Shown piece by piece: positions 7,206 to 13,235 of a DNA stretch of 26,813 bases; positions within the stretch are counted from its first letter, which is position 1; each line of letters begins with the position of its first letter. The notes beneath the pieces are model-generated. The model was not told where the DNA came from, did not search any database, and saw only the letters and a list, made by a program, of their open reading frames with translations. Origin of the DNA: a virus; the UHGV virus genome UHGV-0083306, one strand, 5' to 3'. The position numbers were made by a program, and so were the translations under genes.

Positions 7206-7678
7206 ACCTCAATCTCTCTGACCGCTCCGCCAGCCTCTTTGAATTTTGCAATCAGGCTGTCAGCCTTATGCTCGAACTGGCCATAACCAGCACCCGGCAG
7301 TGAAGCCCAGATATTGCTGCAACGGTCGATTGCCTGACGGATATCACCGCGATCAATCATCGGTAAAGCGCCACGCTCTTTAATCTGCTGCAATGCCACA
7401 GCGTCCTGGCTTTTCGGAGAGAAGTCTTTCAGGCCAAGCTGCTTGCGGTAGGCATCCCACCAACGGGAAAGAAGCTGGTAACGTCCGGCGGCTGTTGATT
7501 TGAGTTTGGGGTTTAGCGTGACAAGTTTGCGAGGGTGATCGGAGTAATCAGTGAATAGCTCTCCGCCAACAATGACGTCATAACCATGATTTCTGGTTTT
7601 CTGACGTCCGTTATCAGTTCCCTCTGACCACGCCAGCATATCGAGGAACGCCTTACGTTGATTATTGATTTCCACCAT
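7202..7678 (-). CDS. R: Endolysin, lambda R lytic transglycosylase
   Basis: 158 aa, essentially the recalled lambda R sequence ([39 protein letters not shown]...). Confidence 0.95.
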
Positions 7679-7985
7679 CTTCTACTCCGGCTTTTTTAGC
7701 AGCGAAGCGTTTGATAAGCGAACCTATCGAGTCAGTACCGATGTAGCCGATGAACACGCTCGTTATATAAGCGAGATTGCTACTTAGTCCTGCGAAGTCG
7801 AGAAGGTCACGAATGAACCAGGCGATAATGGCGCACATCGTTGCGTCGATTACTGTTTTTGTAAACGCACCGCCATTATATCTGCCGCGAAGGTACGCCA
7901 TTGCAAACGCAAGGATTGCCCCGATGCCTTGTTCCTTTGCCGCAAGAATGGCGGCTAACAGGTCATGTTTTTCTGGCATCTTCAT
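7662..7985 (-). CDS. S: Holin/antiholin, lambda S
   Basis: 107 aa matching recalled lambda S, including the Met1-Lys2-Met3 dual start (S107/S105). Confidence 0.95.
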
Positions 7986-8140: not shown

Positions 8141-8389
8141 ACCCGCGTTCACGAAGGTCATGTGTAGAAGGCCGCAGCGTAACTATCACTGATGAATTCA
8201 GGATAGCCAGTGGCTACGGCTCAGTTTGGGTCGTGCTGTTGCTGGGCGGCGATGACGCCTGTACGCATTTGGTGATCCGGTTCTGCTTCCGGTATTCGCT
8301 TAATTCAGCACAACGGAAAGAGCACTGGCTAACCAGGCTCGCCGACTCTTCACGATTATCGACTCAATGCTCTTACCTGTTGTGCAGAT

Positions 8390-8447
8390 ATAAAAAATCC
8401 CGAAACCGTTATGCAGGCTCTAACTATTACCTGCGAACTGTTTCGGG
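8390..8447 (-). terminator. tR' terminator (end of the pR' 6S-type transcript)
   Basis: Long hairpin CCCGAAAC...GTTTCGGG (8399..8447), followed on the minus strand by ATTTTTTATA. It matches recalled lambda tR'. Confidence 0.8.
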
Positions 8448-8580
8448 ATTGCATTTTGCAGACCTCTCTGCCTGCGATGGTTGGAGTTCCAGACGATACG
8501 TCGAAGTGACCAACTAGGCGGAATCGGTAGTAAGCGCCGCCTCTTTTCATCTCACTACCACAACGAGCGAATTAACCCAT

Positions 8581-9072
8581 CTATCCCATACTGGAGAATT
8601 CACCATGATATTTTATCCTGGCATTTTCCATTGCCTTTCTAGCCTCCTCGATATCGTCAAAACACCCTACATGAATCCTTTTACCATTGACTCTAATTCT
8701 TCCAACCCACTTGTTTGCAGCAGAATTAAAAGTCACCCCCTTCACACCAGATGAATTGTTTTTCCTCATCTTGCTGTTCCATGAGTTTTGAGTGTTAGTA
8801 ACAACACGAAGATTGGCTATCCGGTTATCAGACCTATCACCATTAATATGGTCAATCACATCGGTTGGCCAATCATTGTAAACCATCAGCCATGCAATTC
8901 TATGGACATATAGCCGCATTCCATAAAGTTTTACCTGCAGATATCCATTGGTTTTATAGCCAACAACAGCGCCATAGATAAATCTAGAGGACCGAGGTGG
9001 ATTCTTCCATGTAAGAATTCCAGTATCTGGATTGTAATTAAAAAGTCTCAATGCATCTTCACGTTTTAACAT
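8581..9072 (-). CDS. HNH homing endonuclease with AP2-like DNA-binding domain
   Basis: 163 aa. HNH_3-type motif HRIAWLMVY..VIDHINGDRSDNRIANLR..TNTQN, then an AP2-like GVKGVTF..KWVGRIRVNGKRIHVGCFDDIEEA. Confidence 0.85.
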   Translation of the reverse strand: MLKREDALRLFNYNPDTGILTWKNPPRSSRFIYGAVVGYKTNGYLQVKLYGMRLYVHRIAWLMVYNDWPTDVIDHINGDRSDNRIANLRVVTNTQNSWNSKMRKNNSSGVKGVTFNSAANKWVGRIRVNGKRIHVGCFDDIEEARKAMENARIKYHGEFSSMG

Positions 9073-9092
9073 AGGCGAACCACATAGATATT

Positions 9093-9157
9093 AGAGCCTG
9101 CTGACATAGAAATATCACCACGAGAGAAGTCGCCAAAAGCGATATTTCTCAGGCTCT
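9093..9157 (-). other. Interrupted 17-bp hairpin in the 5' UTR of the HNH gene
   Basis: AGAGCCTG/CAGGCTCT (8 bp) plus AGAAATATC/GATATTTCT (9 bp), with a 7-nt bulge and a 24-nt loop. It ends 20 nt before the ATG, which lacks a strong SD. Confidence 0.4.
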
Positions 9158-9260
9158 ATTCCTATGTGCTCTCGAGTTTATGATGCGCATGTCAGTGCGC
9201 TTAGAACTTAAAGATGAGGTGGGTAAAAGCTTAAAGAATGTGAACGGATATAAATCTGCC

Positions 9261-9343: not shown

Positions 9344-9967
9344 CTAACGTGTGACCGCATTCAAAATGTTGTCTGCGATTGACTCTTCTTTGTGGCATTG
9401 CACCACCAGAGCGTCATACAGCGGCTTAACAGTGCGTGACCAGGTGGGTTGGGTAAGGTTTGGGATTAGCATCGTCACAGCGCGATATGCTGCGCTTGCT
9501 GGCATCCTTGAATAGCCGACGCCTTTGCATCTTCCGCACTCTTTCTCGACAACTCTCCCCCACAGCTCTGTTTTGGCAATATCAACCGCACGGCCTGTAC
9601 CGTGGCAATCTCTGCATCTTGCCCCCGGCGTCGCGGCACTACGGCAATAATCCGCATAAGCGAATGTTGCGAGCACTTGCAGTACCTTTGCCTTAGTATT
9701 TCCTTCAAGCTTTGCCACACCACGGTATTTCCCCGATACCTTGTGTGCAAATTGCATCAGATAGTTGATAGCCTTTTGTTTGTCGTTCTGGCTGAGTTCG
9801 TGCTTACCGCAGAATGCAGCCATACCGAATCCGGCTTGTGATTGCGCCATCCCCATAGCAGCCATCACATCAGTACCGGAAAGAGAGTCAGAAGCCGTGG
9901 CCCGTGGTGAGTCGCTCATCATCGGGCTTTTTGGCGAATGAAATTTAGCTACGCTTTCGAGTCTCAT
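9344..9967 (-). CDS. Q: Late antiterminator Q (lambda type)
   Basis: 207 aa matching recalled lambda Q (MRLESVAKFHSPKSPMMSDSPRATASDSLSGTDVMAAMG...), with a zinc finger CRDCHGTG..CGRCKGVG. Confidence 0.95.
   Translation of the reverse strand: MRLESVAKFHSPKSPMMSDSPRATASDSLSGTDVMAAMGMAQSQAGFGMAAFCGKHELSQNDKQKAINYLMQFAHKVSGKYRGVAKLEGNTKAKVLQVLATFAYADYCRSAATPGARCRDCHGTGRAVDIAKTELWGRVVEKECGRCKGVGYSRMPASAAYRAVTMLIPNLTQPTWSRTVKPLYDALVVQCHKEESIADNILNAVTR
9667..9699 (+). promoter_or_regulatory. paQ-like CII-dependent antisense promoter inside Q
   Basis: TTGCGAGCACTTGC (TTGC-N6-TTGC), then 13 nt, then TAGTAT. The geometry is the same as pRE and pI in this window. Confidence 0.6.
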
Positions 9968-10798: not shown

Positions 10799-11003
10799 TT
10801 ACCTTCCCTCGCAATTGAAGAATTGACTGAAGGTCTTTTTTAATAAATATGCGAGTGCGAATTGAGCAGTAGTTTTCCTTCATTCTGGCGTAGTAATAGT
10901 CCTTTCTTTGCTTAAGTTTGTTGGCATCCGCTGTCATCCAGTCTTTTACAGCAAACTTAATTAACCAGCGGTAACAGAGATACCATTTCAGGTAATCACT
11001 CAT
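10791..11003 (-). CDS. Hypothetical basic protein (70 aa)
   Basis: AT-rich ORF that overlaps both neighbours by a few nt, which suggests translational coupling. No recognisable domain. Confidence 0.5.
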   Translation of the reverse strand: MSDYLKWYLCYRWLIKFAVKDWMTADANKLKQRKDYYYARMKENYCSIRTRIFIKKDLQSILQLRGKVNG

Positions 11004-11166
11004 CGTCTTCTTCCTCGTACATTGAGCTATTCGGATCGCTCATCAGTTCTGCGCAGCAGTGCTCACACACGTGAACTTCCAGCACATGCAGCTTCTGACC
11101 GCAGTTAGCGCACGTTAAAGCTCGCTCGACGCTTTCTTGTTCGTAACTTCGATTTGGGTCAATCAC
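10996..11166 (-). CDS. ninF: NinF
   Basis: Below the track length cutoff (56 aa). GTG 11166 lies in a GTGA overlap with the ninE stop. The product [56 protein letters not shown] matches recalled lambda NinF. Confidence 0.8.
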
Positions 11167-11345
11167 CTTGTTTTCCTCGCACGTTCTCTAAGCCACCGGA
11201 TATCCCACAGGTGAGCCGTGTAGTTGAAGGTTTTTACGTCAGATTCTTTTGGGATTGGCTTGCGTTTATTTCTGGAGCGTTTCGTTGGAAGGTATTTGCA
11301 GTTTTCACAGATGATGTCGGTGAAACTTCGTCGCTGTCTCGCCAT
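11163..11345 (-). CDS. ninE: NinE
   Basis: 60 aa, [60 protein letters not shown], lambda/DLP12 NinE type. Confidence 0.85.
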
Positions 11346-11485
11346 ACGTCCTCCTTTTCCTGCGGTAGTGGTAAAACTCCTGTTGGTGTTCTTTCACACC
11401 GGAGACACCATCGATTCCAGTAAGGTTAATTTGGTCTGAAGCGGTTATCTTCTTTGCATTCACCGCACCGATCACATCGCATCAT
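11312..11485 (-). pseudogene. ninD: ninD disrupted by a nonsense codon
   Basis: ATG 11485 opens [19 protein letters not shown], then TAA at 11428..11426, where I recall CAA in lambda. The downstream NinD codons ([37 protein letters not shown]) remain in frame. The lambda stop position reads TCA here. Confidence 0.6.
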
Positions 11486-11903
11486 GCAGCCCGATCTCCC
11501 CATCTCGCTTTCCACTCCAGAGCCAGTCGCGCTTCGTCTGACCACTTAACGCCACGCTCTGTACCGAATGCCTGTATAAGCTCTAATAACTCCGCAAATT
11601 CGCTTACACGCATCCTGCTGGTTGACTGGCCTATTACCACAAGCCATTCCCGGCAAGGTTAGGAACAACGTCCTGCTGCTTTAATGCTGCGGTAAACACA
11701 CACTTCCAGCTTTCTGCATCCAGCCAGCGACCATGCCATTCAACCTGACGAGAGACGTCACCAAGGCAAGCCCAAAGCTTTCGATTCTGGTCTAAGCTGC
11801 GGTTGCGCTGCTTAAACTCGACAATGATGTCTAAATCGCATGTCCTAAGATACTGAATGGCGTTATATCTTATAGATTCATTAGTAAGGTGTATTTGACA
11901 CAT
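11482..11903 (-). pseudogene. ninB: ninB (orf) 3' portion, separated from its 5' end and carrying a -1 frameshift
   Basis: 11634..11903 encodes ..DIIVEFKQRNRSLDQNRKLWACLGDVSRQVEWHGRWLDAESWKCVFTAALKQQDVVPNLAGNG, then stops. The last 52 NinB codons ([25 protein letters not shown]) continue in another frame, 11640..11482. GGCTTGTGG here compares with recalled lambda GGCTTTGTGG. Confidence 0.75.
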
Positions 11904-12400
11904 TTCATTTTAATACCTCGCAAATTCGCCGAAACATTCATCCGCTTTATTTGCATATACTTTATGAGCTTCCTTTGGGTCATCGTAAAACCCAAGATTA
12001 ACTTTCCTCTTGTTGATTACGATTTGCGCCCTCCATTTTCTTGATTTCTTATCCCATGAAACGCCTTTATATCCTGATTTGTTATTTGCCTTTTTGTTTA
12101 CGTTTTGGATGTTTTGAGATCGAGTTGCCAATCTAAGATTTGCTATACGATTGTCATCCCTAACGAGATTTATGTGGTCGATATCACTTTTTGGTAGACT
12201 GCCATTCATATAGAGCCACGCCAGCCTGTGTGCCTTATAAAGTTTTCCATCGACTTTTATTACCCAGTAGCCTTCGCTACTCTTATGCCCTGCGATATCC
12301 CCAGCATTCATTCTCTGGCATTTCTTTACTTTCCATGTGAATTTCCCTGTTAACTCATCGTAGAGAAGGACTTCTTTAAGTCTCTGCTGAGTTATTTGAT
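11825..12400 (-). mobile_element. 576-bp AT-rich HNH endonuclease insertion in ninB
   Basis: ATCA occurs at both edges (12404..12401 and 11828..11825). Removing 11825..12400 (192 codons) restores a continuous NinB frame (PTKPI-IVEFKQRNRS). Confidence 0.55.
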
Positions 12401-12497
12401 TGATTGGTTTGGTTGGGTCTGGAAGAATTTGCTGTATCGCGTGAATAACGTTTTGCTGATGAATGGGGCTTCTTAGTTCAAACGTTAGTTTCCTCAT
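11910..12497 (-). CDS. NinB(1-32)::HNH-AP2 homing endonuclease fusion ORF
   Basis: 195 aa. It starts MRKLTFELRSPIHQQNVIHAIQQILPDPTKPI (the NinB N-terminus), then HRLAWLYMNG..DIDHINLVRDDNRIANLRLATRSQN and GYKGVSW..KWRAQIVINKRKVNLGFYDDPKEA. It is a paralog of 8581..9072, roughly 35-40% identical by eye. Confidence 0.8.
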   Translation of the reverse strand: MRKLTFELRSPIHQQNVIHAIQQILPDPTKPINQITQQRLKEVLLYDELTGKFTWKVKKCQRMNAGDIAGHKSSEGYWVIKVDGKLYKAHRLAWLYMNGSLPKSDIDHINLVRDDNRIANLRLATRSQNIQNVNKKANNKSGYKGVSWDKKSRKWRAQIVINKRKVNLGFYDDPKEAHKVYANKADECFGEFARY

Positions 12498-12732
12498 TGC
12501 TCACCTTCTGCACGCATGGATTAATTAACGCCAAAATAGCTTCTGGTTTCTCAATAACATCGAACCGCTCACCACTTGCCATTCTTACAATCGTAATCCC
12601 GGCCTCAAATAGGGTTTCGATGTTGTCAGAGTTAACGTACAAGGGCTCATATGCACTTCTGGTGCTTTCTATCACGCCTGTGCTTGGTGGCTGATAGATG
12701 CTGCATTGCATGGTTAATTTTATAAATGGCAT
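12478..12732 (-). CDS. Hypothetical protein (84 aa)
   Basis: ORF packed between neighbours, overlapping the ninB start by 20 nt. No recognisable domain. Confidence 0.5.
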   Translation of the reverse strand: MPFIKLTMQCSIYQPPSTGVIESTRSAYEPLYVNSDNIETLFEAGITIVRMASGERFDVIEKPEAILALINPCVQKVSNEETNV

Positions 12733-12736
12733 ATAC

Positions 12737-13012
12737 TCACTCCTTCACTTTGACTCCAGCAGCGCGGATGTTTTCCTCATAAGCATCCATTGCATCACCG
12801 AAGCCATTGGAATAATCAACAGTAAACCCTTTGGCTAATGCTTCTCTGCTGTCGATAAACTTTGGCGCGGTTATTTCAATAGCTGCGCGAGATGCCTGCC
12901 ATGCCCTCCATGCCATTTCCGTTGATGAATAAACATACCCGCAATCACCATATGCAAGGCTTAAATTTTGCTTTTTCGCGAACTCCAAAAACTGCTTTCT
13001 TGATTCGTCCAT
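12737..13012 (-). CDS. Hypothetical protein (91 aa)
   Basis: The track ORF is trimmed to ATG 13012 (GGGGA 5 nt upstream, 1 nt after the upstream stop). It begins MDESRKQFLEFAKKQNL. Confidence 0.55.
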   Translation of the reverse strand: MDESRKQFLEFAKKQNLSLAYGDCGYVYSSTEMAWRAWQASRAAIEITAPKFIDSREALAKGFTVDYSNGFGDAMDAYEENIRAAGVKVKE

Positions 13013-13013
13013 A

Positions 13014-13235
13014 TCAATCCCCGTTAGTCGTTTCACTCACGAATCTGACAAAACCAGCCATGTTAATTTGCATGAGTTTTTTCAATACTTTGTCTCGTCG
13101 GCTACGTTTTGGTTTTGGCCTGTGGTTGAATCTTTCACAAACTGGAAGGCTTGATGATTTCCAGTACCTATTACGCCTTGCTCCATCTTCCGCCATATCG
13201 GCATGAATAAGGTCTGCGAGTGTGCTCATATTCAC
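13014..13235 (-). CDS. Hypothetical basic protein (73 aa)
   Basis: ORF in the operon, with a basic stretch HRPKPKRSRRDKVLKKL. No recognisable domain. Confidence 0.5.
   Translation of the reverse strand: MNMSTLADLIHADMAEDGARRNRYWKSSSLPVCERFNHRPKPKRSRRDKVLKKLMQINMAGFVRFVSETTNGD

Follow-up and report, generated by a model that had tools for sequence, protein, structure and literature searches.

The viral genome UHGV-0083306, a stretch of 26,813 nucleotides (nt) that we refer to as the window, is a P22-like/lambdoid mosaic with portal, terminase, lysis, Q, nin, O, cI and erf genes. In its nin region the gene ninB (orf in phage lambda), encoded on the minus strand, contains a foreign block at 11808..12401 that consists of an HNH endonuclease gene and a substitute 5′ end for ninB itself. 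We consider it likely that this block is a mobile HNH-AP2 homing-endonuclease cassette resident in the ninB gene of a P22-like lambdoid prophage, and that its design spares the host gene without splicing. Confidence in this explanation of the architecture is high; for active homing, confidence is moderate.

Anatomy of the cassette

An open reading frame (ORF) of 195 amino acids (aa) on the minus strand (12497..11910), opening with MRKLTFELRSPIHQQNVIHAIQQILPDPTKPI, fuses NinB residues 1-32 in frame to an HNH endonuclease. A preliminary description of the sequence had already recognized in this ORF a NinB N-terminus that passes into an HNH-AP2 endonuclease. Pfam places an HNH_3 nuclease domain (PF13392) at aa 87-129 (12111..12239, minus strand; E = 9.2e-17, 60.9 bits), followed by a putative AP2-type DNA-binding domain (PF00847) at aa 141-181 (11955..12077, minus strand; E = 1e-6), which at 29.4 bits stays under the gathering score of 33.3 bits. 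The part contributed by ninB, codons 1-32 at 12402..12497, is the displaced 5′ end of the native gene. It aligns with the uninterrupted ninB of Sf6 as far as ..CCAATC (codon 32, position 12402), where homology ends, to return only at 11807 with CGCAACCGC (RNRS).

These alignment boundaries enclose the whole foreign cassette (11808..12401, minus strand), which is 594 nt long in the window and 595 nt in its relatives. Codons 33-195 of the endonuclease and their TAA stop (11910..12401, with the stop at 11912..11910; delimited by the ORF and by Pfam) are followed by one base and then by a 34-codon substitute ninB 5′ end (11808..11908), which reads MKCVKYHLTNESIRYNAIQYLRTCDLDIIVEFKQ in relatives and whose frame is broken after codon 6 in the window. 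Beyond it lies a lambda-type ninB core (RNRSLDQNRK...KARWGDRAA and the stop codon; 11482..11807) that is native to the recipient phage, is matched by the Pfam NinB family, and shares 97-99% identity with ninB in mEp043 and in E. coli prophages, where the gene is uninterrupted. Uninterrupted ninB reads ...PI VVTIQE RNRS, and its DNA across the insertion region is CTTCCAGACCCAACCAAACCAATCGTAGTAACCATTCAGGAACGCAACCGC; the cassette has replaced 18 nt of this DNA (codons VVTIQE), its 34 substitute codons stand for 38 native ones, and the IIVEFKQ codons at its end are foreign to Sf6-type ninB by alignment.

The boundaries differ from those first proposed, in which a 576-bp insert split ninB and deletion of 11825..12400 recreated a continuous gene. 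The frame does remain open after such a deletion, but the junction that it creates, PI|IVEFKQ, is native in none of the uninvaded alleles compared, and the foreign block really runs from 12401 to 11808 at the expense of the 18 native nucleotides. The ATCA repeat at the edges of the shorter insert was considered as a target-site duplication and rejected, the real right boundary lying 18 nt further on; the repeat is most likely coincidental. Similarly, the NinB frame had been thought to resume about 80 nt past the TAA, when it in fact does so 1 nt past it, at ATG 11908; its restart was placed too late because a one-base deletion in the window breaks the frame from this ATG after 12 codons.

The endonuclease and its probable translation start

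Free-standing relatives of the endonuclease (162-170 aa) begin with M..(L/I)TxxRLKELLHY, the equivalent of codon 33-35 in the fusion ORF, and the start codon that an ordinary free-standing gene of this kind possesses is absent from the cassette. There is no in-frame ATG, GTG or TTG from codon 1 to M62, which already lies within the conserved N-terminal region of the endonuclease, and the displaced ninB 5′ end supplies the sole canonical start codon. Because no such codon precedes M62, and because the relatives start where the fusion begins, the AAGGTGAG and ATG of ninB are the simplest translation start for the endonuclease. This Shine-Dalgarno-like AAGGTGAG, read from the sequence at 12500..12507 (minus strand), 6 nt upstream of ATG 12497, belonged to native ninB and would now serve the endonuclease fusion ORF. 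A promoter and terminator scan of 11300..13100 found nothing beyond shuffled expectation and no sign of a cassette-internal promoter.

The motifs HRLAWL, DH (DIDH), DNR, NLR and QN are intact in the window's endonuclease when it is compared with its free-standing relatives, many of which share about 50% identity with it. The 90% cluster of the fusion protein comprises 592 sequences, which come from E. coli and Salmonella, and PF00847 is among the precomputed domains of the cluster representative (P0028).

The gene models issued by the Prokaryotic Genome Annotation Pipeline (PGAP) for this endonuclease are 161 and 164 aa long and start at ATA and ATC, and these look like annotation workarounds. 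In the RefSeq annotation of L001:1501-2088, L002 and L003, and likewise in P0284 and P0285, PGAP presents the fusion as two genes: a 'partial HNH endonuclease pseudogene', in truth codons 1-39 of ninB, and an HNH protein of one of these lengths. Such split models occur on more than 200 contigs, and the fusion and the ninB remnant are thus systematically mis-annotated. The cassette would explain this recurrent artefact, in which a partial HNH pseudogene, an HNH model with an ATA or ATC start and a 'NinB' follow one another.

The rebuilt ninB and its substitute N-terminus

In relatives of the window, a complete NinB of 142 aa starts at the ATG one base past the endonuclease stop. PGAP annotates it from this internal ATG, as 'recombination protein NinB', in the three E. 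coli genomes that were opened (L001-L003); the rebuilt 142-aa protein is also unbroken in all 12 of the viral contigs, and in versions with a Salmonella core (P0151, P0275). A GAGG Shine-Dalgarno sequence for the rebuilt gene is located at 11916..11919 (minus strand), within the last endonuclease codons and 7 nt upstream of ATG 11908, and its counterpart, GCGAGG, is kept in a copy that is 69% identical (L005).

The substitute is a genuine NinB-type N-terminus. The intact hybrid P0151 matches the Pfam NinB family (PF05772) at E = 2.9e-46 across profile positions 4-131 and lambda Orf (1PC6) at 1.2e-64, and its AlphaFold2 (AF2) model (pLDDT 80) matches 1PC6 over 141 columns (E = 1e-13). In an alignment of 21 NinB proteins the substitute retains the invariant N16 and the RxRS...QN motif. 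Its nearest natural N-termini are those of P0268 (52% identity over 42 aa) and of the P0237/P0247/P0250 group.

Searches for the origin of the substitute were made at several depths. A word-index search with 60 aa gave mostly truncated NinB fragments, and an exhaustive search of representatives with 45 aa of the substitute returned two fragments of the same allele and P0268 only, with no donor lineage identified. P0268 itself lies in a decayed prophage, a context that is uninformative on the origin of the substitute. In deposited phage genomes, tblastn with the 47-aa substitute N-terminus recovered native NinB N-termini only, at about 41-43% identity. A third type of N-terminus (M-KQIYMLRNEAIRNNAIDAILSLPIDDKSPHEVHIKEPKRSNPQNRLMWALLQ) was seen in an E. 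coli NinB of 145 aa (P0165), where it is joined at about codon 55 to a lambda-type core.

Distribution and behaviour as a unit

Seventeen loci were compared: the window, three E. coli genomes, one chromosomal remnant and 12 viral contigs. Across them the cassette is 98.8-100% identical. Identity ranges over 81-100% in the 96-nt ninB 5′ remnant and over 52-100% in the core, and the outer flanks are for the most part unrelated. Three kinds of core follow the cassette: lambda-type, Salmonella-type (P0151, P0275) and, in L050, one of 28% identity. In the 24 nt to the left of the junction, nucleotide diversity among unique haplotypes is 0.006 in carriers versus 0.055 in cassette-free alleles, a low value that fits a short co-conversion tract; in the right flank diversity is normal from the first base, with no reduction.

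Among 1,360 complete E. coli genomes that matched a ninB-region query, the cassette was present in eight, always at the same site, and it occurs only as a unit (8 of 5,426 E. coli genomes); empty-site alleles include those of Sf6 and HK022. This presence/absence polymorphism, together with an insert far more conserved than its flanks, supports the earlier proposal that a homing-type endonuclease invaded ninB. The question of whether the NinB-HNH fusion might instead be an ancestral architecture that exists without a downstream ninB remnant had an outcome of a third kind: the fusion is conserved, and it is always found together with a rebuilt ninB. A megablast search of deposited phage genomes found the native ninB flanks and no record spanning the insert.

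A second, divergent lineage

A protein of 192 aa (P0029), whose HNH part is 69% identical to that of the window, is also a fusion of a NinB N-terminus with an HNH endonuclease, in this case built on a Cronobacter-type N-terminus (MRKQTFEIRTPLVQQNAIRTIQQLYPD|LGKEISQARVKEV...). The carriers of this lineage are P0029/L005 and L133+L153. The junction falls after codon 27, compared with codon 32 in the window, and is still in frame. In the remnant, 78 of 81 nt are shared with cassette-free alleles of its own lineage (L037 and many of L164-L210). L133+L153 represents a complete copy, in which the endonuclease stop overlaps the ATG (ATGA) of a 142-aa NinB with a core of the local Cronobacter type. 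The first 34 residues of this NinB, MKTIRYHLISESVRYNAIQFIRTCNLDLIVEVKQ, share 68% identity with the E. coli substitute; the Cronobacter-type substitute reads MKTIRYHLISES...LIVEVKQ.

Because the substitute co-diverges with the endonuclease (68% vs 69%) and the flanks follow the local ninB, the substitute is to be seen as part of the element. By the Nei-Gojobori method, the proportions of nonsynonymous and synonymous differences (pN and pS) between the lineages are 0.21 and 0.74 for the endonuclease and 0.17 and 0.68 for the substitute N-terminus, which shows that both have been kept by purifying selection.

The stop and start codons at the junction are spaced in three ways among the variants: TAA-A-ATG, TGA-ATG and ATGA. 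Within the divergent lineage, the junctions at L153:160-180 and L005:5565-5585 differ by 1 nt (AGG TTT TGA ATG against AGT TTT GAA TGA, the latter with the ATGA overlap). This difference alters the C-terminus of the endonuclease and keeps stop and start abutting, and it fits selection for translational coupling. An exact-pattern search of the viral contigs for the Cronobacter-type stop/start junction gave no matches, the L153 junction differing by 1 nt, and a scan of genome contigs with P0029 found only free-standing HNH genes of about 45% identity that are unlinked to ninB.

State of ninB in the window

The endonuclease ORF is intact in the window, and the full-length NinB frame is not. As was noticed in the preliminary description, GGCTTGTGG at 11645..11637 is one T short, here confirmed against every relative aligned (GGCTT(T)GTGG, with TT for the relatives' TTT, at 11641..11642, minus strand). 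The shifted frame stops at 11636..11634, as had also been reported, and the last 52 NinB codons continue in another frame down to 11482. A second one-base deletion, which the preliminary description did not notice, lies further upstream, at 11891..11892 (minus strand), where a T is missing (CAAATA(T)CACC; relatives CAAATATCACC); it falls six codons into the frame from ATG 11908, which then stops at 11872..11870. Without the second deletion, the ORF of the window reads MKCVKYHLTNESIRYNAIQYLRTCDLDIIVEFKQ-RNRSLDQNRK... and runs in frame into the ordinary ninB core.

Both downstream pieces are recognizable as NinB, the ORFs 11903..11634 and 11640..11482 matching the Pfam family at 6.5e-28 and 1.2e-10. 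ATG 11903, 12 nt from the GAGG, is a fortuitous start of the shifted frame, with a possible product of 89 aa (MCQIH followed by residues 8-91). This frame ends at 11634 and therefore lacks the C-terminal third that holds the positions matching R103, V106 and W137, which have been mutated in studies of Orf (PMC4118853). The rebuilt ninB of the window is most likely a pseudogene that would yield the 89-aa truncated product at best. Orf is dispensable in lambda, and the decay of ninB in a prophage would therefore be unremarkable.

An isolated remnant of the cassette is located at L006:2412-3282 (GCA_958319375.1, CATSUT010000026.1), between genes for a lacY-like permease and a formate/nitrite transporter-family protein. 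It contains an intact 195-aa fusion endonuclease and a NinB′ truncated after about 61 codons, and the remaining prophage is gone; here too, the endonuclease ORF has outlived its host gene.

Proposed mechanism and alternative explanations

We propose that the startless endonuclease frame, joined to ninB codons 1-32, would be translated from the ribosome-binding site and ATG of ninB, and that the GAGG, the ATG one base past the stop, and the 34 divergent codons that run into the resident core at RNRS would together yield a full-length hybrid NinB. With stop and start so close in all three spacing variants, termination at the endonuclease stop is probably coupled to translation of this hybrid. 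Cleavage by the enzyme would take place in ninB without the cassette, near codons 33-38, around the 18 nt that are lost on insertion and beside the most conserved codons of the gene. Repair templated by an occupied allele would then copy the cassette through homology arms formed by the ninB 5′ remnant on one side and the core on the other, and the resulting cassette-bearing allele would be without an intact site.

Several observations weigh against such a mobile cassette. The AP2 domain of the window's copy scores under the Pfam gathering threshold, and the left junctions of the two lineages differ, by which a single homing site is not demonstrated. The omega values of about 0.07-0.10 are only qualitative, dS between the lineages being saturated. 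The AF2 model of the hybrid reaches a TM score of 0.54 without the N-terminal strands and is moderately confident at the N-terminus, which makes for weak fold support. The low frequency of the cassette in complete E. coli genomes is unlike that of a strongly driving element, the N-terminal module of P0165, apparently without an endonuclease, implies that ninB N-terminal modules are swapped by other routes too, and lambdoid phages are so highly mosaic that a conserved module in varied flanks could arise by ordinary recombination. The serious rival, which we regard as improbable, builds on these last points: the HNH-AP2 protein would be inactive or cut elsewhere, and the block would be the fossil of one old illegitimate recombination between two phages. 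In one of these a divergent ninB would have been directly preceded by a free-standing HNH gene, and the block would now spread only by ordinary homologous recombination among lambdoid prophages. The mosaic nin regions with flanking genes that differ between carriers, P0165, and the rarity of the cassette would all be consistent with this scenario, and the closest natural N-termini, which come from other NinB lineages, fit a donor phage with a divergent ninB. It accounts less readily for an HNH ORF under strong purifying selection with all of its catalytic motifs kept, or for a frame with the host ATG that was maintained in two lineages despite different junctions. The cassette is, moreover, at least 98.8% identical over ninB backgrounds that differ by up to 48% and include both E. 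coli and Salmonella cores, and an unrelated HNH gene of mirror-image design at the other end of ninB (see below) is hard to credit to chance recombination alone.

The remaining alternatives concern the breaks in the window's ninB and the way in which its sequence might be rejoined. It is very unlikely that the two frameshifts are assembly or sequencing errors and that the real phage has an intact rebuilt ninB, although one deletion does lie in a short T run (TTT to TT), as in the homopolymer error suggested earlier, and every other carrier examined is intact. The other deletion is outside a homopolymer (ATATC to ATAC). In alignments to mEp043 and vB_EcoP-720R6 that cover about 16 kb of the window at 95-99% identity, no further one-base gap within a gene is left uncompensated; the others are of 3 nt, in compensated pairs or beside gene ends, and were not each checked against reading frames. 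Two deletions within 430 nt would therefore be unexpected under random error. The exact 89-aa ORF, which requires both deletions, recurs with the same neighbours on six contigs (ENA and Logan assemblies), and because of this recurrence the deletions look inherited. On all these grounds they are most likely real. We give scant credence to a gene in pieces, in which NinB fragments (residues 1-32, the middle part and the C-terminal 52 aa) assemble into a working protein. Each piece is open in some frame, and split-gene precedents are to be found among those cited in PMC10448857, but in the relatives the downstream ORF by itself encodes all of NinB from a start of its own, which makes residues 1-32 redundant and removes the basis of the split-gene arrangement first envisaged. 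The breaks are single-base deletions absent from other carriers with no start signals built around them, the 52-aa piece has only GTG as a start, and the truncation drops the three Orf positions named above (PMC4118853). Least probable of all is self-splicing, whether of a group I intron that holds the ORF in frame (an ORF-bearing intron was also raised in the preliminary description) or of an intein-like insertion. The ORF is in frame with its upstream exon, as in many organellar intron ORFs, and removal of 576 nt leaves an open frame, but a scan of 11000..13000 with Rfam 15 at E ≤ 1 gave only a chance match to a CRISPR repeat and no intron. With 1 nt from stop to ATG and the next 102 nt coding for a NinB N-terminus that is conserved and under selection, there is no room for a ribozyme core, and the PIIVEFKQ junction is absent from the cassette-free alleles compared. 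For an intein, there is no Hint domain (Pfam finds HNH_3 and AP2 only), and the TAA at 11912..11910 ends the frame.

Relation to known systems

The closest analogues of the ninB cassette are mobile ORFs of fungal mitochondria that carry a foreign gene end, as described for atp6 of Allomyces macrogynus and for atp6, atp9, cox2 and nad3 of Glomus (PMC3630166). In both, the endonuclease gene is accompanied on its moves by a divergent version of whatever part of the target it displaces, the hybrid gene is complete and in frame, and the displaced native end is kept beside the insert. The fungal ORFs, however, encode LAGLIDADG or GIY-YIG enzymes, are organellar and replace the C-terminal end of their target, leaving the native end as an unused downstream remnant, whereas the ninB cassette encodes an HNH-AP2 enzyme, resides in a bacteriophage and replaces the N-terminal end. 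It further differs in that the displaced native end would be used as the translation start of the endonuclease, and in that a new ribosome-binding site for the rebuilt gene lies in the last codons of the endonuclease.

Free-standing HNH(HNN)-AP2 endonucleases are known from the Xanthomonas phages Xp10, OP1 and Xop411 (PMC2248197) and from ICP1 (gp59/gp209; PMC10448857). The ninB endonuclease shares with them the order of HNH_3 followed by AP2 (a putative domain in the window's copy) and the motifs HRLAWL, DH, DNR, NLR and (E/Q)N. Those genes have their own start and lie between other genes, in contrast to the ninB endonuclease, which is startless, lies inside a gene, is fused to 32 of its codons, and is accompanied by a substitute gene end.

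Insertion of an HNH-type gene inside a phage gene with neither intron nor intein is also known from nrdA of Aeh1, which, as cited in PMC10448857, is split by the free-standing homing endonuclease mobE. There NrdA is made as two complementary halves, whereas in ninB the downstream ORF is complete, which makes the 32 codons before it redundant. That an HNH endonuclease can take over the N-terminus of a resident gene in frame has a precedent in the same phage group: in gene 31 of the P22-like phage epsilon34, the N-terminus of eaE continues without a frame change into an HNH homing endonuclease (PMC2629481). A substitute gene end was not reported for it, and both the host gene and the endonuclease subfamily differ from those of the ninB cassette. 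The Orf-HNH fusions of the DUF968 family, a stable architecture of a whole Orf-like domain with a C-terminal zinc-finger HNH (PMC4118853), resemble the ninB fusion in combining NinB/Orf-related sequence with an HNH motif in a single polypeptide. Identity with the Orf-HNH proteins of Curtis et al. was considered and rejected as unrelated, the ninB fusion consisting of 32 Orf residues and an HNH_3-AP2 endonuclease with a separate full NinB after it.

Our literature searches returned no description of an endonuclease in ninB, and as far as the searched literature shows the cassette is widespread yet undescribed in phages. It would represent a third way, besides introns or inteins and gene splitting, in which a homing endonuclease can inhabit a phage gene without killing it, by a replacement-gene-end strategy so far documented mainly in fungal mitochondria, and it would offer a concrete mechanism for the sharp mosaic joints within lambdoid genes. 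The system is also small and tractable: lambda and P22 genetics apply to it, the target gene is non-essential and can be assayed by known means, and the structure of Orf has been solved.

A second cassette type at the 3′ end of ninB

A different cassette, absent from the window, occupies the 3′ end of ninB at L087:3001-4012 and in about 15 other viral contigs (among them L094, L102-L104, L107, L108, L110-L113, L115 and L118). These genes have a native N-terminus (to ..ERNRS), then a foreign core of 28% identity, and directly after it a 200-aa NUMOD4-HNH_3 endonuclease with an I-HmuI NUMOD-like domain, the last nine codons and stop of which are the native ninB 3′ end (..KARWGDRAA*). Both cassettes are present at L050:3001-4589, where only 12 nt of shared ninB, CGCAACCGCAGC (RNRS), separate the foreign segments.

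The gene ninB is therefore invaded at both ends by unrelated HNH genes of mirror-image design. We see roughly even chances that lambdoid and P22-like phages harbour a whole, previously undescribed class of such 'self-repairing' cassettes, which carry an end of their target gene and co-opt the end that they displace, with ninB as a hotspot for two of them. If both cassettes are active, endonuclease-driven replacement of gene ends would generate module boundaries inside phage genes.

Neighbouring genes and the HNH-AP2 paralogue

Between the ninB stop and ninE (11345-11163), the minus strand at 11346-11481 holds a short ninD-like fragment directly after ninB. Relatives have a PAPS-reductase (ninC-like) or methyltransferase gene after ninB, a module that the window has lost or never had.

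The other HNH-AP2 gene of the window, to which the preliminary description had referred in calling the ninB endonuclease a second paralogue, is located at 9072..8581 on the minus strand. It encodes 163 aa from its own ATG, is 39.6% identical to the ninB endonuclease, has an AP2 domain that scores 33.6 bits, and belongs to the ordinary free-standing kind. The gene lies between Q (9344-9967) and the holin gene (7662-7985), within a segment of about 1.1 kb (8157-9258) that has no counterpart in the mEp043 alignment, and the exact protein is found on about 1,000 public contigs.

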